Shown here piece by piece: positions 2,775 to 19,021 of a DNA stretch of 24,000 nt. This DNA is from Desulfobotulus sp. (GTDB lineage: Bacteria; Desulfobacterota; Desulfobacteria; Desulfobacterales; ASO4-4), in assembly GCF_034006065.1 (NCBI RefSeq), contig NZ_JAVETM010000001.1:293147-317146 (forward strand), in the 5' to 3' direction. Both the position numbers and the translations under genes were made by a program. Under the pieces are notes generated by a model. The model ran no database searches. It worked only from the letters and a program-made list of their open reading frames with translations, and was not told the DNA's origin. Position 1 is the first letter of the stretch. Each line of letters opens with the position of its first letter.

Positions 2775-2995
2775 GGGCGGAATGTCAAAATCCAGCTCCG
2801 GCCATTTCCGGTCCCCATCCGCTGAAGGGCACCCATCGACCGCATGTAGTATCAGATACCAGGGCCGGGGGGCAAGGGGGAGCCATGGCGTCGAAAATCA
2901 GCGCATACGATGCTTTATTTAAACCCAAAAACGCCCGGTTTTTCAATGTTTAAGAATAAAAATCAATGAATCCAGGCATTAAAAATGCCAAAAAT

Positions 2996-3024
2996 TTGAC
3001 ATGCGCCATAAAAACGATTATAAG
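2996..3024 (+). promoter_or_regulatory. Sigma70-type promoter for the proVWX-like operon
   Basis: TTGACA (2996-3001), a 17-nt spacer, then TATAAG (3019-3024). It sits in an AT-rich intergenic region about 80 nt upstream of ATG 3107. Confidence 0.5.
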
Positions 3025-3106
3025 TTCTTTTGCTCTGAATACATATGCCCTGGAAAAGTCCAGACTCCAGGGATTTTCCTTCTCTTTTTTCACAAACAGG
3101 AACCTT

Positions 3107-4333
3107 ATGCCCGAAGCAGAACAGAACATTAAAATACGCATAGAAGGACTCAGCAAAATCTTCGGATCCAGGCATCACATCCCTGAAGCCAGAAAAATGC
3201 TGAAGCAGGGAAAAAGCAAAGAAGAGATTCTCAGAAAAACCGGCTGCGGCGTCGGCCTGTCTGATGTGAACTTTTCCGTGGCAGAAGGCGAGATTCTTGT
3301 GGTCATGGGACTTTCCGGAAGTGGAAAATCCACCCTTGTGCGTTGCATCAACCGTCTCATTGAACCCACGTCAGGCCGCATCTTCATTGATGGGGAGGAC
3401 ATCACCGCCCTGTCTCCGGAAAAGCTGCGCCACATCCGCCTCACCAAGCTCGGCATGGTCTTCCAGAATTTTGCCCTCTTTCCCCACCGTACCGTCTGCC
3501 AGAACGCCGAATATGGTTTGGAAATCCAGGGCATGCCCCAGGAGACAAGAAAAAAAAAAGCCATGATCGCCCTTGAACAGGTTGGACTCAAAGGCTGGGA
3601 GGACCATTATCCCCACAATCTTTCCGGTGGCATGCAGCAGCGTGTGGGGCTGGCCCGGGCTCTCGCCCTGGACCCCGACATCCTCCTCATGGATGAGGCC
3701 TTCAGCGCCCTTGACCCCCTCATCCGATCCGATATGCAGGATGAACTGATCCACCTCCAGCAGAAGCTGCAGAAAACCATCGTCTTCATCAGCCACGACT
3801 TAGATGAGGCCCTCAAGATCGGAGACCGCATTGTTCTGATGAAAGACGGCCAGGTGGTGCAGATCGGCACAGCCGAAGAAATCCTCACCAACCCCGCCAC
3901 TCCCTATGTGGAAAGATTTGTGGAAAACGTTGACATCACCCGCGTACTCACCGCGGAATCCATCATGATCCGGCCCAAGGCCATGGTTTCTCCGGACATG
4001 CACGGACCCAAAACGGCTTTGCGCTTCATGCAGAAAGAAGGATTTTCCCAGATTTTTGTCCATGACAGAAAACACCGGGTGATCGGTATTCTTTCCGCAG
4101 AAGCCGCTTCCGAAGCCGCCCACAGGGGTGAGCGCGATCTGAGCGCTGTCATGCAAAAAGACTTTATCCATGTAACCCCTGAAACACCTGCTGCGGATCT
4201 CATCCCCATACTCGCAGACATTCCCTATCCCCTCCCTGTCTTAGACACCCAAGGCCATATGAAGGGCATCATTATCCGCGGCTCCCTCCTTGCGGCTCTC
4301 GCGGAAAAAGGAAGGAACAGCGACCATGCCTAG
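3107..4333 (+). CDS. proV: Glycine betaine/proline ABC transporter ATP-binding protein with C-terminal tandem CBS domains
   Basis: Walker A GLSGSGKST, signature LSGGMQQRV, Walker B ILLMDEAFSALD and an H-loop (ISHD). The roughly 130-aa CBS-like tail is typical of ProV/OpuAA. Start is moved to ATG 3107 (AGGAA upstream); the 47 residues from 2966 look non-coding and overlap the promoter. Confidence 0.9.
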   Translation: MPEAEQNIKIRIEGLSKIFGSRHHIPEARKMLKQGKSKEEILRKTGCGVGLSDVNFSVAEGEILVVMGLSGSGKSTLVRCINRLIEPTSGRIFIDGEDITALSPEKLRHIRLTKLGMVFQNFALFPHRTVCQNAEYGLEIQGMPQETRKKKAMIALEQVGLKGWEDHYPHNLSGGMQQRVGLARALALDPDILLMDEAFSALDPLIRSDMQDELIHLQQKLQKTIVFISHDLDEALKIGDRIVLMKDGQVVQIGTAEEILTNPATPYVERFVENVDITRVLTAESIMIRPKAMVSPDMHGPKTALRFMQKEGFSQIFVHDRKHRVIGILSAEAASEAAHRGERDLSAVMQKDFIHVTPETPAADLIPILADIPYPLPVLDTQGHMKGIIIRGSLLAALAEKGRNSDHA

Positions 4334-5159
4334 AATTCCCTTGGGCGAATTCATTGAGTCCGCCATCCACTTTCTCGTGACCCATTTTTCCTTTCTCACC
4401 ATTGCCTTTACCCAGGTGATGGAAAGCGTCATTTCTTTTCTTGAAAAGGGCCTTCTCCTTCCGCCGCCCTGGCTGTTTACCCCCATGGCAGCGGGCCTGG
4501 TCTTCTGGCTGACCCGCAAAAGAGGTCTTGCCCTTTTCACCCTGGCAGGTCTTTTTCTCATCTGGAACATGGAACTCTGGACCGCCACCATCAGCACCAT
4601 CACCCTCGTGCTCATCGCCACCCTCGCTGCCCTGGCCATCGGCATTCCCCTCGGCATCCTCGCCGCCCTGAGTCCCAGGGTGAACCGCGTGGTGCAGCCC
4701 GTACTGGATGTCATGCAGACCATGCCAGCCTTTGTCTACCTCATCCCTGCCATTCCCTTTTTCGGGCTGGGTAAGGTGGCGGCCATCTTCGCCACTCTCA
4801 TTTTCTCCATGCCGCCTGCCATACGCCTCACCTGCCTGGGGATTCAGCAGGTTCCCAGGGATCTTGTGGAGTGCGCCGACGCCTTTGGCTCCAACCCCTG
4901 GCAGAAACTCTTCAAACTCCAGCTTCCCATGGCCACGCCCACCATCATGGCCGGGGTCAATCAAACGGTGATGCTCGCCCTTTCCATGGTAGTCATCGCC
5001 GCCATGATCGGTGCAAGGGGACTTGGGGGCGAAGTCTGGCGCGCCATCCAGAGACTTCAGATGGGAAGTGGTTTTGAAGCAGGCATCGGCATTGTCATTG
5101 TGGCCATTATTCTGGATCGCGTGCTCCAGCACCTTGGGGCAAAAAAGCATGGATCATGA
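4326..5159 (+). CDS. proW: Glycine betaine/proline ABC transporter permease
   Basis: Multi-pass membrane protein with an EAA-like loop region (...FGSNPWQKLFKLQLPMA...). ATG 4326 overlaps the proV stop (ATGCCTAG) and is preceded by AAGGAAGG. Confidence 0.85.
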   Translation: MPRIPLGEFIESAIHFLVTHFSFLTIAFTQVMESVISFLEKGLLLPPPWLFTPMAAGLVFWLTRKRGLALFTLAGLFLIWNMELWTATISTITLVLIATLAALAIGIPLGILAALSPRVNRVVQPVLDVMQTMPAFVYLIPAIPFFGLGKVAAIFATLIFSMPPAIRLTCLGIQQVPRDLVECADAFGSNPWQKLFKLQLPMATPTIMAGVNQTVMLALSMVVIAAMIGARGLGGEVWRAIQRLQMGSGFEAGIGIVIVAIILDRVLQHLGAKKHGS

Positions 5160-5182
5160 ACCAAAAAAAAGGAGATTTGCAC

Positions 5183-6040
5183 ATGAAAAACAAAAAGTGG
5201 CTGTCCATCCTGGCTTTTCTGGCCTTTGCCCTGTTTCTGGGCAACGGTACCGCCCTTGCACAGAAGAAAGTGCGCCTTGCTTATGTGGAATGGGATTGCG
5301 CTGCGGCCAGTACCACCCTGGTGCAGGCCGTTCTCCAGGAAAAACTCGGATATGAGGTGGAAATCCTTCCTGTGGCTGCAGCGGCCATGTGGCAGGCCAT
5401 TGCCACGGGCAATGTGGACGGAATGGTCACCGCCTGGCTGCCTGTGACCCATGCGGATTATTATGCCCGCGTCAAAGACCGGGTGGAAGATCTGGGGCCC
5501 ATTGTGGGCGGCGCAAAGCTCGGCTGGGCCGTACCCTCCTATGTGACCATCAATTCCATTGAAGAAATTCAGGCCCATGCGGATCAATTTAAAAACAAGA
5601 TCATTGGCATTGATCCTGGGGCAGGTCTGATGCGTCTCTCCGAACAGGCCATGAAGGATTACAAACTGGACAAGATGGAGCTTTTGGAAGGTAGCGGCGC
5701 CACCATGACCGCAGCCCTGGATACGGCCATCCGCCGCAAGGAGTGGGTGGTGGTCACAGCCTGGTCGCCCCATTGGATGTTCGGAACCTGGGATCTCAAA
5801 TACCTTGACGATCCCAAAGGCGTTCTTGGCGGCGAAGAACAGATTCATACCATTGTCCGGAAAAATCTCAAAAAAGAGATGCCCGAGGTTTATCAGGTGC
5901 TGAAAAATTTTGCCTGGAAAGACCCTGGGCAACTGCAGAGGGTCATGGCCTGGGACCAGGAACCCAGGGCAGACCGCTATGAAAACGCCAAGCGTTTTAT
6001 CCTTGAAAACGAAGCCCAGGTGAATGCCTGGCTGAAATAG
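5183..6040 (+). CDS. proX: Glycine betaine-binding periplasmic substrate-binding protein (OpuAC/ProX type)
   Basis: Signal peptide MKNKKWLSILAFLAFALFLGNGTALA. OpuAC-like core (VEWDCAAAST..., ...TAWLP...) and operon context. AAGGAG lies 7 nt before ATG 5183; the alternative ATG 5156 overlaps the proW stop. Confidence 0.8.
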   Translation: MKNKKWLSILAFLAFALFLGNGTALAQKKVRLAYVEWDCAAASTTLVQAVLQEKLGYEVEILPVAAAAMWQAIATGNVDGMVTAWLPVTHADYYARVKDRVEDLGPIVGGAKLGWAVPSYVTINSIEEIQAHADQFKNKIIGIDPGAGLMRLSEQAMKDYKLDKMELLEGSGATMTAALDTAIRRKEWVVVTAWSPHWMFGTWDLKYLDDPKGVLGGEEQIHTIVRKNLKKEMPEVYQVLKNFAWKDPGQLQRVMAWDQEPRADRYENAKRFILENEAQVNAWLK

Positions 6041-6176: not shown

Positions 6177-6977
6177 ATGGGTCTTCTTGAAATCACCCTC
6201 TTATCCCTCATCCAGGGGCTTACGGAATTTCTGCCCATCTCCTCTTCCGCCCATCTCATCCTGCCCTCGGCTCTGCTGGGCTGGGAAGACCAGGGCCTTG
6301 CCTTTGACATCGCCCTCCATGGGGGAACCCTGCTGGCTGTGGCCTTGTATTTCCAAAAAGACCTCCGGGACCTTGCCATCGGTTGGTTCGGCTCTTTACG
6401 GGGCAGGCAGAGCCTGCACGGCAGGCTGGCCTGGTTTCTGATCTTTGCCACCATTCCCACAGGCCTTGCCGGGCTTCTTTTCAGCGGTATCATTGAAACC
6501 ACCCTGCGCTCCCCCTGGGTCATCGCCATGACTACCCTTTTCTTTGCCGCCCTGCTCTGGTATGCGGACGCCAAAGGAAAACAGGTTCTCGCCATGGAAT
6601 CCCTGGGGCTTCGCCAAGCCCTTACCATTGGTTTCTGTCAGGCCCTCTCCCTTATTCCCGGTACCTCCCGCTCCGGCATTACCATCACAGCCGGTCTCAT
6701 GCTGGGACTGGACCGCCAGAGCGCTGCCCGCTTTTCCTTTCTGCTTTCCATACCCATCACCCTGCTTGTCACCCTTTACCAGGGGTATAAGCTCATGCGT
6801 CACCCGGAAATCTATGATCTGCCCGCCCTTTTCATGGGCGCAGGACTCTCCTTTGTCAGTGCCCTTCTGTGCATCCACTTTTTTCTGAAAATCATTGCCC
6901 GAATGGGGCTCTTTCCCTTTGTGGTTTATCGCCTCACCCTCGGCGCTGGTCTCGTGCTTTTTCTTGTCTTCTTCTGA
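6177..6977 (+). CDS. uppP: Undecaprenyl-diphosphate phosphatase
   Basis: 266 aa polytopic membrane protein with the hallmark N-terminal motif QGLTEFLPISSSAHL and the later PGTSRSG motif of the UppP/BacA family. Confidence 0.9.
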   Translation: MGLLEITLLSLIQGLTEFLPISSSAHLILPSALLGWEDQGLAFDIALHGGTLLAVALYFQKDLRDLAIGWFGSLRGRQSLHGRLAWFLIFATIPTGLAGLLFSGIIETTLRSPWVIAMTTLFFAALLWYADAKGKQVLAMESLGLRQALTIGFCQALSLIPGTSRSGITITAGLMLGLDRQSAARFSFLLSIPITLLVTLYQGYKLMRHPEIYDLPALFMGAGLSFVSALLCIHFFLKIIARMGLFPFVVYRLTLGAGLVLFLVFF

Positions 6978-7410
6978 AGCGTAAAGCCCTGCCACTTCAC
7001 AGTAAATACCTGTACTTAAAGCCGATCCATTCTAAAAAAACAAAGAATGGACCCGGCTTGTCGCTTTACAAACAATGTTCCATGAACTAAAGTGTGTTAG
7101 GGATCATGGGCGGCAATTCATTAAAAAATGCCACGCCCTTTCCCCGCCTCCCCGCTCAGCGCCTGACAAGGATTCCAATACCCGGATTCGATCCAGCGTC
7201 TGTTTTCCTTAAAAAAAAAATTTGGCAAAACCCATCTGCAGGGATTCTGGCCTTGGCCCCAGCCCTTTTCTTCTGAAAACGCGCTTCCCTCTGGCCGGAT
7301 TTCTGCGGATCTTCCAAAACCCTCCAGAAAATTCAGACCCCAAAACCCAAGCGTCGGAATCCGGTTTTTTTCCGACCCCTAAGACCCGCACCCAAAAGAA
7401 GGAATCCGCC

Positions 7411-9135
7411 ATGCTCCATGCCTTCACCATCCGTCAGCGTATGACGGCCATCCTCATCCTTGTGGGGCTCATGCTCATCGGCATGTTCTGGGCCACCTTC
7501 CGTGCGGCCCACACAGCCCGCGACATTGGTACCCGAGAAACCGGCCATGTGATGCTCGAAGACCAGAAAGCCAAAATCCATGTGGCCACCCACTCTCTGG
7601 CCCTCGCCATGGGCAAGGTGGCGCAAGATATCCGGGATCCGGAAGAACGCATCCGGATCTTCCGGTTGATGCTCCAGGACATCCGCTTTGAGGATGACGA
7701 TTCCGGATATTTTTTCCTTTACCGGAATACCACCAACGTGGCCCTGCCCACCCGCCCAGACCTTGTGGGCAAGGATCTGCGGGATGCCAAAGATTCCAAT
7801 GGGGTCTACTATGTTCAGGCCCTGCAGGACGCCGCCCGCCGGGGCGGGGGTTTTGTCGAATATGTTTTTGACAAACCGGGTTTCGGCAACCAGCCCAAGC
7901 TTTCCTATTCCCAGCCCGTACCGGGTACGGATATGTGGCTGGGCACAGGCATCTACATCGATAACATTGCAAGGGAACAGCAGCGCATCGCCACAGACAT
8001 CAATCAGCGGGTCACAACCTACCTCTTCTGGCTCGCTGGCCTTGCCGGAGTTTTTGCCCTCCTCTTTTTCACCGTGGCCATTCTCACCACCCGCGAGGTT
8101 GTGGTTTCATTGAAACGTACGGCAAAACTGCTCCAGCACCTGGCCTCTGGCAACGGAGACCTCACCCACCGCATGCCCGAAGGCCGCAGGGATGAAATCG
8201 GTGAAATGTCCCTCTGGATCAACCGCTTCATCGGGCAGATCCACGGCATCATATCAAGCATCCGGGACCATGCGGAAAACCTCCGAACCGCTTCCTCCTC
8301 CCTGGGCCATGATTCCCAGGCCATGGCCAGAGGCACCGAAGCCTCGGCCACAGGCACCCAGTCTGTCACCCAGGCCGCCTCCACCATGAAAGACAACATG
8401 GGCAGCATTGCTTCGGCCATGGAAGAAACCGCCACCAACACTTCCATGGTGGCCGCAGCCACGGAAGAGATGACCAGCACCATTGATGAGATCGCAAAAA
8501 ATGCCGAAGAAGCCCGGAAAACCACGGGAAAAGCCGTACTGAAAGCTACCGAGACCTCGGAAAAGACCATCCGGCTCGGTGAGATTTCCAGGGAGGTGGG
8601 GAAGGTGACGGAAACCATATCCGAAATTTCCGCCCAGACCAATCTCCTTGCCCTTAACGCCACCATTGAAGCGGCCCGGGCCGGTGAGGCGGGGAAAGGT
8701 TTTGCCGTGGTTGCGGCCGAAATCAAGACCCTGGCCGAACAGACCGCCCGCGCCACAGAAGACATCCGCCGTATCATTACCCAGGCCCAGGCTCTGTCTT
8801 TGGACGTGGAAGAGGATGTGTCTCTGGTCACTGCATCCATTTCCGCCATTGATGACATTGTCAACGCCATTGCCACAGCTGTGGAAGAACAATCCGCAGC
8901 CACCCGGGAAATTTCCGGCAACGTGCTCCAGGCCTCCCAGGGCATCCAGGAAGTCAATGAAAACATGAGCGCCCTGCACCGCCTTGTGGGTGAAATCTAC
9001 AAGGACATTGACGCCGTGCGCAGCGCCACAGCGGACATGAGCGACACGGGCAGGGCCGTGGATACCAGCGCCCAGGATGTGGCCCGCATGGCGGGGGATC
9101 TGGAAAAACTGGTGGGTCGCTTCAAACTGAATTGA
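7411..9135 (+). CDS. Methyl-accepting chemotaxis protein with periplasmic single-Cache (sCache_2-like) sensor, HAMP and MCP signalling domains
   Basis: Domain order is TM1 ([16 protein letters not shown]), a Cache-like block (DDSGYFFLY...GKDL...DSNGVYYVQ...[12 protein letters not shown]...KLSY...[10 protein letters not shown]), TM2, HAMP, then the conserved MCP hairpin (...[37 protein letters not shown]...). Start is moved to ATG 7411 (AAGAAGGAA upstream); the TTG at 7222 adds a low-complexity extension. Confidence 0.9.
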
Positions 9136-9420: not shown

Positions 9421-9504
9421 GCCTTCCATACAAAACACTGTTTACACAGCAAAGCGGCGACAACGCGGAGACACAGATTTCCGCGACGCATACACCCCGT
9501 GATC

Positions 9505-9598
9505 CGCCTATGTACAAAGCCAAACTCCGGGTAACCGGAGGACGGAAAGCCTACGGGTCCGCAAGATTGTCTTCCGGATGGCCGGGTTACCAAAGGCG
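9505..9598 (+). promoter_or_regulatory. GEMM-I (c-di-GMP-I class) riboswitch aptamer, single copy
   Basis: GCCAAAC-TCCGG-GTAA-CCGGA-GGACGGAAAGCC-TACGG-[GTCCG..CGGAT hairpin]-GGCCGGGTTACC. This has the same block order as the V. cholerae Vc2 aptamer as I recall it (GGCAAACC / GNRA-capped hairpin / GGGACGCAAAGCC / second hairpin / GGGGUUACC). The flanks CGCCT (9505-9509) and AGGCG (9594-9598) can close an outer helix. It sits about 40 nt before the SD AGGAGG and ATG 9641. Confidence 0.75.
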
Positions 9599-9640
9599 AA
9601 CTGCTCTCCAAAACCCTATTTTCACCAGGAGGAAGTTCGT

Positions 9641-10450
9641 ATGAAACGCAATTTCGGCAAAAAACTCATCATCGGCGCGGCCCTCTGCTGCCTTCCCTTC
9701 TCCGCCATGGCTCTGGAAGCTCTGGATGACAGCGCCCTCGGTGGCGTCACCGGTCAGGCCGGTGTGAGCATTGCTCTGGACGATGTGGTGATCTACATGA
9801 AGAGCATTGCAGATGTGACCTACATTGATACGGATGGTTTTGGAGGCGTTGATCGTGCTGGTATCATGATTGAGCACCAGACCGGTGGAGAAAAACTCAT
9901 CACTCTGGGCGCCATTGTGACCGATGATGTTTACGGTATCGATAAACTCAATGCCACATTCAACACCGACAATATCGGTATCCTCTCAAAAGCCGCCATC
10001 AATTCCAAAATGAATGAAATGGCAGCAGCTGCACAGCTTGCCGCCGGAGCTATTGACCAAGCCACATACGATGGCATAGCCGCTGCTGTGGATCCCAATG
10101 CAGTAAATTTTGATCCCACCAACGGATCTACCAGCAACTTTACCAATGGTATCTCCCCCCTGACCATCGATATCGGTGAGGCCGTTGCCCTTACCCAGGG
10201 CTGGACCTACAATACCAATGATACCATCCGAGGTGTAAAAGGCACCCATGTTGCCGGTGTCACAATTGGCCTGCCCACCGTGGAAATCAATACCTACTAC
10301 AACACTGTAGGCGAGCAGAAAGCAATCAAGCTTGTGGAAGTTGGTGATCATGTAGTGAATAAAGGCCACAATGAATTTATCACCATCAGAAAAACCGGTA
10401 ACGCCACCATGGCCATCCTCGGCGGCCGTCTGGAAATCGCTCCCCACTGA
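9641..10450 (+). CDS. Secreted protein, TGQAG-motif family paralog 1 (269 aa); candidate major subunit or cargo
   Basis: AGGAGG lies 8 nt upstream. Signal peptide MKRNFGKKLIIGAALCCLPFSAMA is followed by LEALDDSALGGVTGQAGVSIALDD. The protein is Thr/Asn/Gly/Ala-rich with no Cys after the signal peptide. Its N- and C-terminal segments resemble those of the proteins at 10556 and 18551. Confidence 0.85.
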   Translation: MKRNFGKKLIIGAALCCLPFSAMALEALDDSALGGVTGQAGVSIALDDVVIYMKSIADVTYIDTDGFGGVDRAGIMIEHQTGGEKLITLGAIVTDDVYGIDKLNATFNTDNIGILSKAAINSKMNEMAAAAQLAAGAIDQATYDGIAAAVDPNAVNFDPTNGSTSNFTNGISPLTIDIGEAVALTQGWTYNTNDTIRGVKGTHVAGVTIGLPTVEINTYYNTVGEQKAIKLVEVGDHVVNKGHNEFITIRKTGNATMAILGGRLEIAPH

Positions 10451-10555: not shown

Positions 10556-11575
10556 ATGAAAATCCTTTGCCTGTTTTTTATCTGCCTCACGTGGCTCAGC
10601 CTCTGCGCCGCGCATCGCAGCGAAGCACTCCAGGCTATGGCGGATACGGATCTGGCCGCATGCACAGGACAGGCGGGCATTTCCATGGCCATTGCGGATC
10701 TGGTGGTCTATCATCATCAGGAAAACATCGCCTTTATCAGCAACCGCAAAATCGATGAAAATACCACTACCCAAACCCCGCTCACCCTCAGCAATACCCA
10801 AAGCCTTCTTACTCTGAATGCGGGCAGAACCGACATCAACGGCAATGGCAAAATTGATCCCATCACCTTGGACATCGGCATGCTTTCCGATCTGGAACGG
10901 CTCTGGAAGGAGCCCAACTGGCTGCCGGAAGATCAGTGGGAAATAATAGATGCCTTGCCCGCCGGTGTACTGGATCGCCCTGTAATCGCCCTTCGCGCTC
11001 CGGACTGGGACAGAAACCTTGAAATCCGCAACAATGGCATTTCCTTGAATGATGTGAATCTCGGTTCTTTCTCCCTTCAGGGCAGTAAGACCCAGGGGTG
11101 GGAGCTTTTTCTTTCCGCAGGCCAGATCATGAAAGTGACTGCCCCTGATGATCCTGATGATCCCAATATCCGCAAAGCGGGTATGGATTTTGAATTCGCC
11201 TTCCAAAAACACATTGAAGCCTTCACCTACAGCCCTTCCGAAAGCCAGACCCTTTCCTTTGACAATCTCTATTTTGCCAAAGACCTGACCTTTTCCGAGA
11301 CCAATGCTTCAGACATCACCGCCTCGGGTTTCTTCCGCCTGGGCAACATGCGGGAGGGCAAACCCCTCTCCATCGATATGGGCGTAACCACCGAAGGCAG
11401 AAGCCAAGCGACCCCTGTCTTAAGGCTGGACCTGAAAGATGCCAGCGGCTCCTTTGCCGTAGCCGGTATCCGGGACATCCAGGGAGCGGAAACCCGCAAC
11501 TTCGGCCCTGTCATTGCCGAAGGAATTCAGATTCATCATATGCGTCTGGAATTCCCCGGTCGGGGGACCCCATGA
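10556..11575 (+). CDS. Secreted protein, TGQAG-motif family paralog 2 (339 aa)
   Basis: Signal peptide MKILCLFFICLTWLSLCAA is followed by ...ALQAMADTDLAACTGQAGISMAIADLVVY. The motif occupies residues 28-39, the same register as in paralogs 1 and 4. There is no obvious SD sequence. Confidence 0.75.
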   Translation: MKILCLFFICLTWLSLCAAHRSEALQAMADTDLAACTGQAGISMAIADLVVYHHQENIAFISNRKIDENTTTQTPLTLSNTQSLLTLNAGRTDINGNGKIDPITLDIGMLSDLERLWKEPNWLPEDQWEIIDALPAGVLDRPVIALRAPDWDRNLEIRNNGISLNDVNLGSFSLQGSKTQGWELFLSAGQIMKVTAPDDPDDPNIRKAGMDFEFAFQKHIEAFTYSPSESQTLSFDNLYFAKDLTFSETNASDITASGFFRLGNMREGKPLSIDMGVTTEGRSQATPVLRLDLKDASGSFAVAGIRDIQGAETRNFGPVIAEGIQIHHMRLEFPGRGTP

Positions 11576-12684: not shown

Positions 12685-13440
12685 ATGCACATCCTCGCCG
12701 CCTTTGTCATATTCCTTGCCTTTGCCAATGGTTTCCATCCCATCTCCGAAGAAAAGGAAAGTCACGCCGTTTTTGTGGTGGATCCGGATCAACGCATTGT
12801 GCTGCGTACCCCTGTGGTAACGGATGAGATCATCCAGTTTCGCCACCTGGTACGCCAGAACTTTGATTATTCCTGCGGGTCTGCGGCCCTGGCCACCCTG
12901 CTCAATGCTGCCATGGGCGAAAATCTCACGGAACGTCAGGTCATCCATGGTCTCATGGAATACGGAGACAAGGAGCAGATTGCCGCACGCAGAGCCTTTT
13001 CCCTTCTGGACATGAAACGCTTCGTCAATGTGCTGGGCTATGACGGCGCAGGCTATAAGGCAAAAATGGAAAACCTGCTCGATCCCCAGTACTGGCCTGC
13101 CATTGTTCCCATCAAAATCTTTGATTACCGTCATTTCGTCGTTTTTCGCGGAGCCTACGGCGGCCATGTCTTCATCGCCGACCCCTGGCGGGGAAACAGC
13201 AGCTACACGGAGGAACAGTTTGCGTCCATGTGGTATGACAATGTCATGTTTCTTGTTTCCAACGGCGAAAAAAAACATCCCAACCTCCTGCGCCTGCGCA
13301 CGGAAGACCTTCGCTATATCGACGAAGACACGGCCCGGTATTTTGTCTTTGACCAGGAAAAACCCTTTAACACCCCAAGGGACACCCAGGTGCCTGTCAA
13401 AGACGGCGTTCCCGCAGGGGGCTATTTTTATAAACCCTAG
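12685..13440 (+). CDS. Periplasmic stand-alone C39-like cysteine peptidase
   Basis: Signal peptide MHILAAFVIFLAFANG. C39 signature RQNFDYSCGSAALATLLN (Q58, C64; Cys codon 12874-12876), then ...DYRHFVVFRG..GHVFIADP (H150, D166). The Q-6-C and H-16-D spacings match what I recall for bacteriocin-processing C39 domains. Confidence 0.8.
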   Translation: MHILAAFVIFLAFANGFHPISEEKESHAVFVVDPDQRIVLRTPVVTDEIIQFRHLVRQNFDYSCGSAALATLLNAAMGENLTERQVIHGLMEYGDKEQIAARRAFSLLDMKRFVNVLGYDGAGYKAKMENLLDPQYWPAIVPIKIFDYRHFVVFRGAYGGHVFIADPWRGNSSYTEEQFASMWYDNVMFLVSNGEKKHPNLLRLRTEDLRYIDEDTARYFVFDQEKPFNTPRDTQVPVKDGVPAGGYFYKP

Positions 13441-16444: not shown

Positions 16445-17935
16445 ATGCCTTCTTTCCTCGTACAAGTCTTCTTTGTTTTCCTTGCTCTTGTTCTTCCCGT
16501 CGGCGGTCTTTGTCAGCCCAGCCTGCGCGTTACCGAAGAATTTTTCGGAATGCCCGAATCCGGTATCCAGATTTTCGGCCTCACGGCGGATGACCAGCTC
16601 AGCCATGTGGCCTATGCGGTGCAGGATGAAAAGGGTATGTTCGTTCGCATGGACAAAGAGGAGGGACCTCACTTTGAGTCCATCCGCAAAGGCACCCCGC
16701 TTTTCGGCCCCCAGGGCCATATCATGGTCTACGTAGGCTTCCGACAGGCCAAAAGCCATGTCTGGGTGAATGGGAAGGAAAAGGGGATTTACGATGGCGC
16801 AGACAGTTTTACCTTCAGCCCAACGGGTCAGCATCTGGCCTATCGCGTTGAAGTTAAAGGCCAGGGCCAGGCCGTGGTTTCCGGAGACAAACAAGGACCT
16901 TTTTTCCGGATGGTGGATCCGGAAAGCCTTGTCATGGCCCAGGACGGAGGCCTTGCCTATGTGGGGATGGACCCGGACAGAGGGGCGGTGCTCATGGTCA
17001 ATGGCAGGGAGGCCGGGATTTTTGAGGGGGTGCGGGAGCTACGCTTTTCCCCAGAAGGCCATTTTGCCTGTGCTGTGAAAAAAGATGGCCTGTGGCACCT
17101 TTTTCTGGAAAACACCATGGAAAAAGAAGGGTATGAGGGCATTCAGTACATTGGATTTTCCCCGGACAGTGAGAAAATCGCCCTTGTCATCCTCCGTAAG
17201 GGCAAACTCAGTGTGCGCATGGGAAAGGACACCCACAGATCCTGGGATACGGTGGGGCCTCCCCTCTTTTCTCCGGACAGCCAACGCCTTGCCTATCCCG
17301 CCAAACAGGGTGAGCGCTGGGCCATGGTGGTGGATGGAAAAAGGGGGGATCGCCACGATCTTCTGGGCCCGCCCCTCTTTTCTCCGGACAGTCAGCACAT
17401 CGCCTGGATGGCTGTGGAAAAAGATCACTCTTTTTATGTGGTGAACCACAAAAAACAGCCTGCCTATGAGACTGTGGACGGCTTTGCCTTTCATCCGCAA
17501 AAAGGCTTTGCCTACAGGGCCAGGCAAAAGGAAAAATGGCATCTTGTCACCGAGCTTGGGGAAGGCCAGGCCCATGATGGCGTCACGCCCCCCCTCTTCC
17601 ATGAAAACGGCCGTCTTCTCTTTGGCATTGCCGATGATCATCAGCAGCGGCTGGTGGTGGATGGGGTTCCCGGCCCTCCGGCGGATCAGATCAGCCCTGC
17701 GGTTTACAGTCCAGGAGGCCAGCATGTGGGATGCGCTGTGATTCTCGATAAAAAATGGTACCTGGATATGGATGGCCAGCGCACTCCCATTGAAAATATC
17801 ACCGCCTTTCTCAATCAGGCGCCGGTGCGGTTTATTGATGAAAACACCATGCAGGGGCTGGCTTACCAGCTTCCTGGGCCCCGTTTTCTGAAAATCTCCG
17901 CAACCCTTGAAAATTTCAAGGAAACCATTGAGTGA
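16445..17935 (+). CDS. Secreted beta-propeller-like repeat protein (PD40/TolB-like FSPDG repeats)
   Basis: GGAG lies 5 nt upstream. Signal peptide MPSFLVQVFFVFLALVLPVGGLC. There are about 10 repeats of roughly 40 aa carrying F/YSP(D/E/T/G)(G/S)xxhAY-type motifs (FSPTGQHLAY, FSPEGHFAC, FSPDSEKIAL, FSPDSQRLAY, FSPDSQHIAW, YSPGGQHVGC). Confidence 0.7.
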   Translation: MPSFLVQVFFVFLALVLPVGGLCQPSLRVTEEFFGMPESGIQIFGLTADDQLSHVAYAVQDEKGMFVRMDKEEGPHFESIRKGTPLFGPQGHIMVYVGFRQAKSHVWVNGKEKGIYDGADSFTFSPTGQHLAYRVEVKGQGQAVVSGDKQGPFFRMVDPESLVMAQDGGLAYVGMDPDRGAVLMVNGREAGIFEGVRELRFSPEGHFACAVKKDGLWHLFLENTMEKEGYEGIQYIGFSPDSEKIALVILRKGKLSVRMGKDTHRSWDTVGPPLFSPDSQRLAYPAKQGERWAMVVDGKRGDRHDLLGPPLFSPDSQHIAWMAVEKDHSFYVVNHKKQPAYETVDGFAFHPQKGFAYRARQKEKWHLVTELGEGQAHDGVTPPLFHENGRLLFGIADDHQQRLVVDGVPGPPADQISPAVYSPGGQHVGCAVILDKKWYLDMDGQRTPIENITAFLNQAPVRFIDENTMQGLAYQLPGPRFLKISATLENFKETIE

Positions 17936-17952: not shown

Positions 17953-17981
17953 TTGACCCTTGCATCTTTTTTTCATAAAGT
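17953..17981 (+). promoter_or_regulatory. Candidate sigma70-type promoter for module 2
   Basis: TTGACC (17953-17958), a 17-nt T-rich spacer, then TAAAGT (17976-17981). It would give a leader of about 560 nt containing the inverted repeat and all five aptamers. A second TTGACA at 18039-18044 has no acceptable -10. Confidence 0.35.
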
Positions 17982-18065
17982 GATCTTTGTTCACCATCCA
18001 GACAAAAAAAAGATCCGCGAGGCAGCGTTTTTTGATCTTTGACATCGGGAAAGGTTTCGCACGCA

Positions 18066-18119
18066 CCATGTGTGGCGCTGAAGAACCCCCTATTGCCGGG
18101 GCTTCAGCGCCACACATGG
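18066..18119. repeat. Perfect 18-bp inverted repeat (long hairpin or palindromic operator)
   Basis: CCATGTGTGGCGCTGAAG (18066-18083) is the exact reverse complement of CTTCAGCGCCACACATGG (18102-18119). Inside the 18-nt loop, CCCC/GGGG can add 4 more pairs. No U-tract follows on either strand. Confidence 0.8.
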
Positions 18120-18145
18120 AGGTAAAGGGGTCGTCGAAGCGATGC

Positions 18146-18207
18146 GCCAAACCATGGGCAACCATGGGACGGAAAGCCACGGGTCCCACAGGGACAGCCG
18201 GGCCGCC
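18146..18207 (+). promoter_or_regulatory. GEMM-I-like riboswitch aptamer, tandem unit R1
   Basis: GCCAAAC-CATGG-GCAA-CCATG-GGACGGAAAGCC-ACGG-[GTCCC-aca-GGGAC]-AGCCGGGCCGCC. It has a GNRA loop (GCAA) and is nearly identical to R4. Confidence 0.75.
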
Positions 18208-18218
18208 TCAATCCTCAA

Positions 18219-18290
18219 GCCAAACCGGAGGTAACTCCGGGACGGAAAGCCACGGATCCAGAACTTTACATCTGGACAGCCGGGTTGCAC
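18219..18290 (+). promoter_or_regulatory. GEMM-I-like riboswitch aptamer, tandem unit R2
   Basis: GCCAAAC-CGGAG-GTAA-CTCCG-GGACGGAAAGCC-ACGG-[ATCCAGA-actttaca-TCTGGAC]-AGCCGGGTTGCA. Both stems differ from R1 by compensatory changes. Confidence 0.75.
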
Positions 18291-18294
18291 CAAA

Positions 18295-18360
18295 GCCAAA
18301 CCGGGGGTAACCCCGGGACGGAAAGTCACGGATCCGCATGGTGCGGATGGCCGGGCCGCC
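18295..18360 (+). promoter_or_regulatory. GEMM-I-like riboswitch aptamer, tandem unit R3
   Basis: GCCAAAC-CGGGG-GTAA-CCCCG-GGACGGAAAGTC-ACGG-[ATCCGCA-tgg-TGCGGAT]-GGCCGGGCCGCC. It has its own second-hairpin sequence and is followed by a separate hairpin at 18360-18378. Confidence 0.7.
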
Positions 18361-18378
18361 TGCCGGAATTTCCGGCAG
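18360..18378 (+). promoter_or_regulatory. Hairpin immediately 3' of aptamer R3 (possible internal expression platform)
   Basis: CTGCCGG-aattt-CCGGCAG is a perfect 7-bp stem. Its left arm starts at the last nucleotide of R3, and it is followed by ATTTCA, which is not a convincing U-tract. Confidence 0.4.
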
Positions 18379-18384
18379 ATTTCA

Positions 18385-18446
18385 GCCAAACCATGGGCAA
18401 CCATGGGACGGAAAGCCACGGGTCCCACAGGGACAGCCGGGCCGCC
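18385..18446 (+). promoter_or_regulatory. GEMM-I-like riboswitch aptamer, tandem unit R4 (copy of R1)
   Basis: It has the same 62-nt sequence as R1 as far as I can align by eye and lies 239 nt downstream of R1. Confidence 0.75.
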
Positions 18447-18456
18447 TCCTTCTCAA

Positions 18457-18527
18457 GCCAAACCGGGGGTAACTCCGGGACGGAAAGCCACGGGTCCAGA
18501 ACTTTACATCTGGACAGCCGGGTTGCC
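18457..18527 (+). promoter_or_regulatory. GEMM-I-like riboswitch aptamer, tandem unit R5 (copy of R2)
   Basis: GCCAAAC-CGGGG-GTAA-CTCCG-GGACGGAAAGCC-ACGG-[GTCCAGA-actttaca-TCTGGAC]-AGCCGGGTTGCC. It differs from R2 at two stem positions. Its end lies 10 nt before the SD AAAGGAG and 23 nt before ATG 18551. Confidence 0.75.
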
Positions 18528-18550
18528 TGTAGTACAGAAAGGAGTCTTCC

Positions 18551-19021
18551 ATGAGCAAGCTTCGTTTCCTCCTGGTTTTCTGCACCATGACGGCAATCAC
18601 CCTGTCCACGGCCTCTGCCGGACTGATTGCCATGACAGAAACCGAAATGCATCATGTGACCGCCCAGGCTGGTGTTTTCATCGATGTGGACAAGGTCCGC
18701 TTTGATTCCGAAATGAAAACCCTTAGTTACGGCAGCGATGCCACCGGATGGATCAGCCTCAATGACGTGAGGATTTCCACCTTCGTCAACAGCGGCAAAC
18801 CCATTGAGGTGGGCATGGTTACCGAATACAACCCCTACGAGGGCCGTACCATGGAAATGATGAAAATCGACTTTACGGATGTGGAAATCCGCATGGACGA
18901 ACTTCTCATCGGCTCCATCCGCGTGGGTCCCCGTCCGGGGGAAGGGCCAAGCTTCGGGAGCATCGGCATCACCGGGTTTCACGCAAACATGTCAGGGAAC
19001 GTGCGCATATGGACCCGCTGA
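18551..19021 (+). CDS. Small secreted protein, TGQAG-motif family paralog 4 (156 aa)
   Basis: AAAGGAG lies 6-7 nt upstream. Signal peptide MSKLRFLLVFCTMTAITLSTASA is followed by GLIAMTETEMHHVTAQAGVFIDVD, with the motif at residues 28-39. Its C-terminus (...GFHANMSGNVRIWTR) resembles that of paralog 1 (...GNATMAILGGRLEIAPH). Confidence 0.85.
   Translation: MSKLRFLLVFCTMTAITLSTASAGLIAMTETEMHHVTAQAGVFIDVDKVRFDSEMKTLSYGSDATGWISLNDVRISTFVNSGKPIEVGMVTEYNPYEGRTMEMMKIDFTDVEIRMDELLIGSIRVGPRPGEGPSFGSIGITGFHANMSGNVRIWTR

Follow-up and report, generated by a model that had tools for sequence, protein, structure and literature searches.

An array of five c-di-GMP-I aptamers with one putative translational platform in the leader of a fiber subunit-like gene of Desulfobotulus sp.

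Introduction

Tandem riboswitches are the textbook case of "digital" gene control by RNA alone. The class with the most tandem examples is the class I cyclic di-GMP (c-di-GMP) riboswitch (c-di-GMP-I, or GEMM-I), for which the published maximum is three units with their own terminators. The largest survey lists 347 c-di-GMP-I doublets and 12 triplets but no array above that order (Sherlock et al. 2022, PMC9481103), and the sole characterized natural triplet is Bc3-5 of Bacillus thuringiensis (Zhou et al. 2016, PMC4759541). A third of the delta-proteobacterial GEMMs were described as occurring in tandem, with no counts given (Weinberg et al. 2007). Here, we analyzed a stretch of 24,000 nucleotides (nt) from Desulfobotulus sp. 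(assembly GCF_034006065.1, contig NZ_JAVETM010000001.1, positions 293,147 to 317,146, forward strand; referred to in full as the window, with positions counted from its first letter), in which five units of this class stand head to tail in the leader of a gene for a small secreted protein. The array may represent a five-aptamer, one-platform riboswitch that represses translation at high c-di-GMP levels, a statement that, taken as a whole, we hold with evenly balanced confidence.

A preliminary description of the locus, made from the letters alone, had named doublets and one characterized natural triplet as the precedents, in agreement with the two papers on tandem c-di-GMP-I riboswitches (PMC9481103, PMC4759541). 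Arrays larger than three were not reported in the open literature that we searched, and the supplements of PMC12452182 contained no matches. The wording "four tandem / five tandem" in the Geobacter metallireducens genome paper refers to heptanucleotide repeats and was discarded as a mention of aptamers.

Results

Identity of the five aptamer units

The array covers positions 18146-18526 of the plus strand and comprises five head-to-tail GEMM-I/c-di-GMP-I aptamers (U1 to U5) in one mRNA leader. With core limits set from the equivalent of G20 to the equivalent of C92, the elements measure 61 to 70 nt; their starts are spaced by 73, 76, 90 and 72 nt, and the gaps between them are 12, 6, 25 and 11 nt long. 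The array, its 3' end, the regulated gene and a separate single aptamer elsewhere in the window are as follows (R2 is our flank-trimmed model, introduced below; SD, Shine-Dalgarno sequence):

18146-18206, plus strand: aptamer U1, GCAA loop, short second hairpin (P2), identical to U4; 47.3 bits with RF01051 when scanned alone, 79.2 bits with R2
18207-18218, plus strand: linker 1, CTCAATCCTCAA, G-free and without a platform
18219-18288, plus strand: aptamer U2, GUAA loop, 97% identical to U5; 60.7 bits with RF01051
18289-18294, plus strand: linker 2, ACCAAA
18295-18359, plus strand: aptamer U3, GUAA loop, with its own P2 ATCCGCA/TGCGGAT; 50.1 bits with RF01051, 84.6 bits with R2
18360-18384, plus strand: linker 3, CTG-CCGGAATTTCCGG-CAG-ATTTCA, resembling a degenerate copy of the 3' tail (a CUG...CAG hairpin, then a decayed SD)
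18385-18445, plus strand: aptamer U4, identical to U1; 49.1 bits with RF01051
18446-18456, plus strand: last linker, CTCCTTCTCAA, containing the predicted anti-SD CUCCUU at 18446-18451
18457-18526, plus strand: aptamer U5, GUAA loop, enclosed by the predicted anti-SD:SD helix; 62.5 bits with RF03167, 84.3 bits with R2
18527-18537, plus strand: small tail hairpin, CTGTAGTACAG, with a CUG...CAG closure that is conserved and an interior that is free in sequence and length among arrays
18538-18544, plus strand: SD AAAGGAG, 6 nt 5' of the ATG
18551-19021, plus strand: regulated gene for a 156-amino-acid secreted DUF6160 protein, a FilA-like putative pilus/fiber subunit (Pfam PF19657, 40.3 bits)
9519-9590, plus strand: single c-di-GMP-I aptamer (RF01051, 58.7 bits), preceding a paralogous DUF6160 operon that starts with the gene at 9641-10450

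The units share the layout GCCAAAC, a stem of 6 base pairs (bp) with a GCAA or GUAA loop, GGACGGAAAG(C/U)C, ACGG with a variable hairpin, and GCCGGG(UU/CC)GC. The GEMM fold consists of two adjacent hairpins, the first of which has stems of 2 and 6 bp, a 3-nt internal loop and a GNRA loop, while the second is variable (Weinberg et al. 2007). The coordinates, the block layout and the stems quoted in the preliminary description were accurate, and all of its compensatory pairs are present. The proposed partners can pair at 96 to 97.5% of positions, compared to 20 to 50% when they are slid by one to three columns, and seven base pairs have changed on both sides across the aptamers. The joiner between the hairpins, described as "virtually always AAA" (Weinberg et al. 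2007), is invariant as GACGG-AAA-G(C/U)C in all six aptamers of the window and in four units from Desulfosudis. The GNRA loop is GCAA or GUAA in the window, with GUGA, GCGA and GAAA as further variants in relatives.

A scan of the whole window at Rfam gathering thresholds returned from the array only U2 (RF01051, threshold 35) and U5 (RF03167, threshold 59), together with the single aptamer (RF01051 match at 9509-9594), at which a match had also been anticipated. Because Infernal discards hits that overlap a better one, U1, U3 and U4 went unreported: with its 87 positions, the model extends into unpaired flanks, which neighboring units share over 2 to 7 nt. Scanned without their neighbors, these three scored well above the RF01051 threshold, so that all five units reach the gathering score of RF01051 or RF03167, as expected from the claim of five tandem aptamers in one leader; E-values of the unit matches range from 1e-9 to 1e-14, far beyond chance. 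A permissive whole-window scan lost U2 in the same way, and our own first model, R1, which included the flanks, did not report three of its training sequences. It was replaced by R2, which was trimmed to 65 positions and reports all five units. As a unit counter, the whole-window Rfam scan was rejected, since it yields two of five.

All five units carry a G before the 2-bp stem, an A after GACGG and a C two nucleotides past the second hairpin, which we take to be G20, A47 and C92 of Vc2 (mapped via the Rfam alignment). RF03167 (c-di-GMP-I-GGC) is the best-scoring model for U1, U3 and U5, although U1 (57.1 bits) and U3 (52.6 bits) fall below its threshold. Its consensus reads GACGCGAAgCc and that of RF01051 GACGCAAAgCc; all units read GACGGAAAG, with A and not G at the variant column. 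Therefore, the GGC specificity was rejected and the units were filed as canonical c-di-GMP-I aptamers. The good scores are explained by the short, receptor-less second hairpin that RF03167 shares with them, in agreement with the observation that GYRA-loop GEMMs almost never have the tetraloop receptor (Weinberg et al. 2007). G or A at the G20-equivalent position separates sensors of c-di-GMP from those of c-AMP-GMP (cGAMP) (PMC9481103). An identity as GEMM-Ib sensors of 3',3'-cGAMP, which requires A at this position, was also rejected, as all five units have G. Judged by these sequence features, the array almost certainly contains five real aptamers of the c-di-GMP class.

Unit relatedness and assembly support

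Over 64 nt, U1 and U4 do not differ at all (100% identity), and a 75-nt comparison of U2 with U5 gives 97% identity, relations that are absent from the preliminary description; the P2 of U2 has an A-C mismatch where U5 has G-C. The array thus has the form [U1-U2]-U3-[U4-U5] with three distinct unit types, and because of these identities, the independent support within the window amounts to three unit types and the single aptamer. Relatives supply further independent support for the identity of the units.

Near-identical units raise the question of whether assembly has inflated a leader of two or three units to five, and two short contigs with two units each fit such an artefact. The five-unit leader is present, however, in four independent assemblies (L001 to L004) from different samples and assemblers, with two alleles differing in the U5 loop. 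The sequence of U3 and of the junctions on either side is unique, and relatives hold from four to at least seven nonidentical units. Several short-read unitigs begin exactly 30 nt ahead of where the repeated segments end (18419 and 18497), as is expected of a true repeat in a k=31 graph. An artefact is scarcely credible on this evidence, and the five-unit array is not one. The two short contigs, L008 (2031-2174) and L010 (806-947), join U1/U4 to the U4-U5 linker and U5, which corresponds to an exact deletion, or an assembler collapse, across a 239-nt repeat; the U5 loop is of the L002 type in L008 and of the window type in L010.

Related arrays in genomes and metagenomes

A generic triple-core pattern was scanned over 185,579 species genomes and a subtype-specific pattern over metagenomes, the latter yielding 24 contigs, in which units were counted with R2. 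Both scans are pattern based and incomplete, and matches of the first, an unspecific one, were dominated by Lysinibacillus and other periodic repeats. Among the matches listed from the genome scan were a metagenome-assembled genome (MAG) of Desulfosudis oleivorans (DYJD01000008.1), with four closely related units 5' of a DUF6160-like gene, and compact c-di-GMP-I triplets in Clostridia and Chloroflexota (L014, L019, L021, L026, L083, L090 and L120), which stay at three units even with filters off. L013, L071 and L113 are also compact triplets, each with a weaker middle unit. The compact triplets come from Lachnospiraceae, Oscillospiraceae, Clostridiales and Chloroflexota and have linkers of 8 to 13 nt. 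Packing without intervening platforms thus also occurs outside the DUF6160 clade.

The metagenome contigs comprise one array of three units, eleven of four, nine of five and one of seven, in addition to two arrays cut by contig ends with at least six and at least seven units. The word "exceptional", which the preliminary description had used for five units, holds against the literature with its maximum of three but not against sequence space, in which leaders with 4, 5, 6 and at least 7 units recur. The gene that follows nearly all of the arrays encodes a small DUF6160/FilA-like secreted protein. The proteins downstream fall into nine lineages sharing less than 50% identity, and arrays of 3 to at least 7 units lie 5' of orthologous genes at 27 to 46% protein identity. 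Synteny of the C39 peptidase, outer-membrane proteins, array and small DUF6160 gene is kept at 27 to 60% protein identity. All but two of the full-length units score 55 to 92 bits with R2. With respect to the ligand letters, A47 is invariant, C92 is present in 93 of 96 units and G20 in 85 of 96; the G20-equivalent position is A in 8 distinct units and C in 3. The window array thus appears to be one member of a seemingly undescribed family of high-order arrays.

A20 units occupy position 2 in L132, L134, L135, L137, L140, L146, L150 and L152, position 5 in L141 and the last position in L139, L147 and L149; C is found in unit 2 of L149 and in units 4 and 7 of L154. Arrays that contain A20 units may, judging by this letter, sense two second messengers on one leader. 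L148 (122-470) and L151 (7371-7719) carry five short units (62 nt, GCGA/GUGA loops, period of 71 to 74 nt) that precede an unrelated secreted protein of 191 amino acids instead of DUF6160 and retain a last linker with CUCC and an AAAGGAG SD. The L151 array is preceded at about 550 nt by a lone aptamer on the opposite strand (6759-6821, minus strand).

Linkers and the predicted anti-SD:SD helix

The closing helix is a trait of characterized family members and lies outside the RF01051 model. Across 42 distinct short linkers, G makes up 2% of the letters compared to 34% in the aptamer cores. Being nearly G-free, the short linkers cannot pair with each other, which leaves the internal units without a closing helix: for U1 to U4, a closing helix from their own flanks is impossible (linkers of 6 to 12 nt), whereas U5 is enclosed by the predicted anti-SD:SD helix. 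At the single aptamer (9519-9590), the junction is closed canonically by CGCCU/AGGCG, and a separate hairpin of 12 bp, CGAACUG.CUCUCC...GGAGG.AAGUUCG, buries the SD of this leader (window 9440-9660).

The leader in the window has a single SD, located after U5. The order of elements at the 3' end is conserved among the arrays: the last linker, the last aptamer, a CUG...CAG hairpin, AAAGGAG or AAGGGAG, a spacer of 5 to 7 nt and the ATG. The SD with this spacer is present in 22 of 22 arrays. The last linker starts with CUCC or CUUCC in 21 of the 22 nonredundant arrays, while 7 of the 61 remaining linkers do so (Fisher p=9e-13); by lineage (less than 50% protein identity), the count is eight of nine. 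In the window, CUCCUU immediately follows C92 of U4 and is separated from G20 of U5 by 5 nt; among the arrays, this spacing is 2 to 7 nt (very short, for example, in CTCCTAT). Pairing of the SD with the last linker has a predicted probability of 0.99 in the window, and values of at least 0.87 were obtained for 20 of 22 arrays; folding the entire leader without constraints likewise yields the helix. It is worth -4.1 kcal/mol in the window and -1.7 to -7.1 kcal/mol across the arrays, with L142 (-13.6 kcal/mol) as an exception. As modeled, this is the range of a tunable element, marginal enough for a ligand to tip. These predictions argue, with fairly good confidence, for a single shared translational platform that operates through the anti-SD in the last linker.

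According to the mechanism published for tandem riboswitches of this class, five complete riboswitches would instead act in series, with a pseudo-cooperative, "more digital" response as in the Bc3-5 model. This model demands one platform per aptamer, and the gaps here are G-free stretches of 6 to 12 nt and a single 25-nt hairpin that lacks a U-tract. On the plus strand, no terminator-like site was found between 17850 and 18650. The hairpin in linker 3 (18360-18378), considered as an intrinsic terminator, was discarded: it is followed by ATTTCA instead of a U-tract and fails the scan, and its homologs in relatives have no U-tracts either. The anatomy thus contradicts a series arrangement, which we consider very improbable. 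The preliminary description had also suggested "a very steep or multi-threshold response". This is possible, but it is not implied by the single platform or by precedent, because the known digital behavior rests on one platform per aptamer.

Proposed mechanism and direction of the switch

We propose that five aptamers on short, G-free, unstructured linkers share one expression platform in the 5' untranslated region (UTR) of the fiber gene. Only the 3' end of the array would be coupled to gene expression, via pairing of the CUCCUU of the last linker with AAAGGAG. The resulting helix would enclose U5 at the usual place of a closing helix and abut the ligand pocket of U4. Binding of c-di-GMP at U5, and perhaps at U4, would stabilize this marginal helix (about -4 kcal/mol) and bury the ribosome-binding site, and translation would be lower at high c-di-GMP levels. 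In the solved c-di-GMP-I structures, the ligand stacks on the closing helix and stabilizes it; thus, binding at U5 should lock the SD away (OFF). By this analogy, the OFF direction is about an even call. The upstream, helix-less units would supply additional sites, with the effect of a shifted or sharper response or of a leader kept in its fold, and cooperative packing, mRNA stabilization and ligand buffering are further options for U1 to U3.

Several points weigh against the proposed repression. L142 has no anti-SD in its last linker, and the pairing probability is 0.13 in L133. SD and anti-SD are nearly invariant, which leaves the helix without covariation support, and the enrichment of the anti-SD could stem partly from shared ancestry. 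Smith and colleagues reportedly described in 2009 that the ligand stacks on the closing helix, which makes the affinity of internal units lacking one uncertain. Moreover, nearest-neighbor folding predicts the helix already without ligand, and a ligand-dependent change is therefore an assumption. A helix predicted to form by itself would fit a default-OFF leader that is relieved by the ligand. With the same architecture and the opposite sign, ligand at U4 and/or U5 would clash with the anti-SD:SD helix, so that high c-di-GMP would mean ON. The target points in the same direction: it looks like a pilus/fiber subunit, and c-di-GMP is commonly expected to induce adhesive structures, whereas the proposed switch would repress one. 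Furthermore, the anti-SD adjoins C92 of U4, and in some arrays, only 2 nt separate it from G20 of the last unit. The spacing of 2 to 7 nt among arrays, however, speaks against a precise steric clash, and in characterized c-di-GMP-I aptamers, the ligand stabilizes the helix formed by the strands that flank the junction. We regard the ON direction as rather unlikely.

An extension of the proposed one-platform switch may be offered tentatively, as something that could, but probably does not, apply. The arrays would then be a riboswitch architecture in their own right, beyond a gain in copy number. Aptamers without closing helices on G-free linkers would fold into a ligand-dependent higher-order assembly that drives the one SD helix and sets an ultrasensitive threshold for fiber production; arrays with G20 and A20 units would then integrate c-di-GMP and 3',3'-cGAMP.

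Evolution of the arrays

The window array contains a decayed copy of the tail, CUGCCGGAAUUUCCGGCAG-AUUUCA (18360-18384), and a long third linker is also found in the five-unit arrays L133, L136, L138 and L153. Most of the seven non-last linkers that begin with CUCC precede a unit that is followed by a decayed tail copy (for example, CUGUAACAGUUAACAG-AAGACG). These decayed tails and CUCC linkers indicate growth by duplication of [...anti-SD-aptamer-tail] modules, with subsequent decay of the internal SD. Unit identity within an array is about 70 to 100%, usually above the 76 to 89% between arrays, and no positional orthology of units between arrays was found (no positional diagonal). Within lineages, the arrays thus undergo homogenization or renewed duplication, and their general layout is retained. 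Module duplication and homogenization together explain why U1 equals U4, why U2 nearly equals U5 and why a decayed tail follows U3. A recent one-off duplication was rejected as the origin of the five units, since L133, L136, L138 and L153 share the period pattern (about 73, 75, 92 and 72 nt); identity to the protein encoded in the window is 44 to 46% where measured (L136).

These dynamics bear on whether the upstream units do anything. Only the last one or two aptamers might regulate, and the others would be passengers of slippage or recombination that gene conversion keeps similar. Such an origin would account for the near-identity of U1 with U4 and of U2 with U5, for the two-unit contigs L008 and L010 that match a deletion across the 239-nt repeat, for unit numbers from 3 to at least 7 without positional orthology and for the confinement of the anti-SD to the last linker. 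Against this, every unit of every array carries the full aptamer consensus, and no degenerate units were seen although internal tail copies decay. Arrays of at least four units are kept across lineages at 24 to 46% protein identity. Because the full consensus is kept while nonfunctional tail copies decay, U1 to U3 appear to be under selection, and we consider passenger status unlikely.

Elements upstream of the array

The following elements precede U1:

17953-17981, plus strand: sigma-70-like promoter match TTGACC-17-TAAAGT, the sole one in the leader (1 site compared to 0.2 expected; a consensus match alone)
18036-18044, plus strand: leader motif TCTTTGACA, which recurs 5' of the first aptamer in divergent arrays
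18066-18119, plus strand: leader hairpin with perfect 18-bp arms, CCATGTGTGGCGCTGAAG / CTTCAGCGCCACACATGG; position and CCATG...CATGG closure are kept in relatives with different stem sequences
18121-18130, plus strand: motif GGTAAA(A)G(G/A), conserved, located 3' of the leader hairpin and 5' of U1

With transcription from the promoter match, the 5' UTR would measure about 560 nt. The order CTTTGA(C/A)A, 13 to 20 nt, a long hairpin and GGTAAA(A)G(G/A) forms a leader module 5' of unit 1 (window 18036-18130) that is also present in L136, L142, L057, L135, L147, L150, L132 and L140, where the hairpin is closed by CCATG...CATGG or CGATGG...CCATCG with differing stem sequences. In this module, no sigma-70 -10 element lies at the right distance.

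The Vc2 riboswitch is reported to control the stability of an upstream RNA. By analogy, the array might act mainly as a c-di-GMP-dependent element of mRNA stability or processing, as a high-capacity c-di-GMP sponge or as a trans-acting RNA, with the SD pairing as a secondary matter. Five to seven sites of the high-affinity type per RNA without individual platforms would suit such a role, as would the 5' hairpin and motifs that are conserved before unit 1 in several lineages. Arrays are nevertheless strictly in cis, directly 5' of the same gene family and with a conserved anti-SD/SD arrangement, and a terminator that could release a separate RNA is absent. Action mainly at another level than translation is therefore quite unlikely.

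The regulated gene and its neighborhood

The product of the gene at 18551-19021 has a signal peptide followed by the DUF6160 domain. A profile of the array-associated proteins gave a weak, motif-consistent match to PDB 9xfv, annotated "bacteria pilus (like)" (E=0.07; subunit of 173 amino acids, 25 chains). From the single aptamer onward, the gene order is two larger DUF6160 paralogs, a stand-alone C39 peptidase, two outer-membrane beta-barrels (FadL/TodX-like and MetA-like) and a 496-amino-acid protein, followed by the array with the small DUF6160 gene, a beta-barrel-like protein, an LVIVD-repeat protein and an AMIN/HEAT protein. The C39 protein matches the NCBIfam entries FilB, "pilus system C39 peptidase" (208 bits), and FapD amyloid maturation peptidase (118 bits), both below the curated cutoffs, and a DUF6160 paralog shows a weak NCBIfam relation to "pilus system protein FilA", also below the cutoff. 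On these matches, the cluster is most likely a Fil/Fap-like extracellular fiber system with two c-di-GMP-sensing leaders, in which the single aptamer would most likely serve the large subunits and the machinery, and the five-unit array the small subunit. Nothing relevant to the Fil pilus was found in the literature searched.

The DUF6160 proteins of the window (18551-19021, 9641-10450, 10556-11575 and 12685-13440) and the orthologs in L131 to L154 have a motif after the signal peptide, M(T/S)xL(S/T)(D/E)xEL..V(T)(G/A)QAGI, that resembles the double-glycine leader LSxxELxxIxGG. Together with the clustered C39 peptidase, it suggests periplasmic or extracellular processing of fiber subunits. The 496-amino-acid protein (16445-17935) has a partial match to TmcD (80 bits, cutoff 440) and weak matches to PD40/TolB beta-propellers, and a homolog with 33% identity also lies 5' of the five-unit array of L136. 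Further genes of the window encode a fragment of a second FadL/TodX-type outer-membrane protein (53-868), an ATP-binding cassette transporter of the glycine-betaine type (2966-6040), BacA/UppP (6177-6977) and a dCache/HAMP methyl-accepting chemotaxis protein (7222-9135) directly 5' of the first riboswitch-controlled operon.

Discussion

The array suggests a candidate c-di-GMP receptor for a little-studied Fil/Fap-like fiber system in sulfate-reducing and hydrocarbon-degrading bacteria, with Desulfosudis oleivorans, from which the four-unit array of a MAG is known, as a cultured relative. Leaders with 1, 3, 4, 5, 6 and at least 7 units constitute a natural titration series for aptamer number against dose response, and the family lets one ask whether aptamers without a closing helix still bind their ligand. 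Since the overlap removal of Infernal hides tightly packed repeats, published tandem counts may be underestimates. Should the higher-order assembly considered above exist, this undercounting by Infernal/Rfam would explain why no arrays above the triplet have been reported.

Bc3-5 and the published doublets and triplets share with the window array the aptamer class, the head-to-tail arrangement in one 5' UTR and, presumably, the purpose of reshaping the response to c-di-GMP. Bc3-5 consists of three complete riboswitches with their own terminators, which are transcriptional ON switches. The window array, in contrast, has five aptamers (up to at least seven in relatives), G-free linkers without intervening platforms or terminators, and one SD platform at its 3' end; one platform per aptamer, the mark of the tandem pseudo-cooperative class, is not found. 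The compact triplets of Clostridia and Chloroflexota also have linkers too short for a platform of their own (about 8 to 13 nt) but comprise only three units of a different aptamer subtype (35 to 57 bits with R2).

Several like aptamers on one expression platform are the hallmark of the glycine riboswitch, and the window array has this arrangement. Glycine aptamers occur in pairs with defined inter-aptamer contacts, and quadruplets are two complete riboswitches in series, whereas arrays of the window type have no known contact between aptamers and vary from 3 to at least 7 units.

Vc2 and the canonical single RF01051 aptamers, including the one at 9519-9590, have the same two-hairpin fold, GNRA loop, AAA joiner and ligand letters and likewise lie in the 5' UTRs of surface or motility-type genes. 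They close the junction with their own flanks, which the internal units of the array cannot do, while the last unit would borrow the anti-SD:SD helix. GEMM-Ib of Geobacter and the series of Desulfobacca acetoxidans (PMC9481103) have the same fold and also come from the former delta-proteobacteria. The A20 signature of GEMM-Ib is found in some related arrays, whereas all five units of the window have G, and the D. acetoxidans series is made up of separate riboswitches with terminators that are distributed over 7 kb. Compared to these systems, the aptamer class and tandem sensing are known; what appears to be new is the order of the array, with five units here and up to at least seven in relatives, and its architecture of helix-less internal units, G-free linkers and one SD platform.

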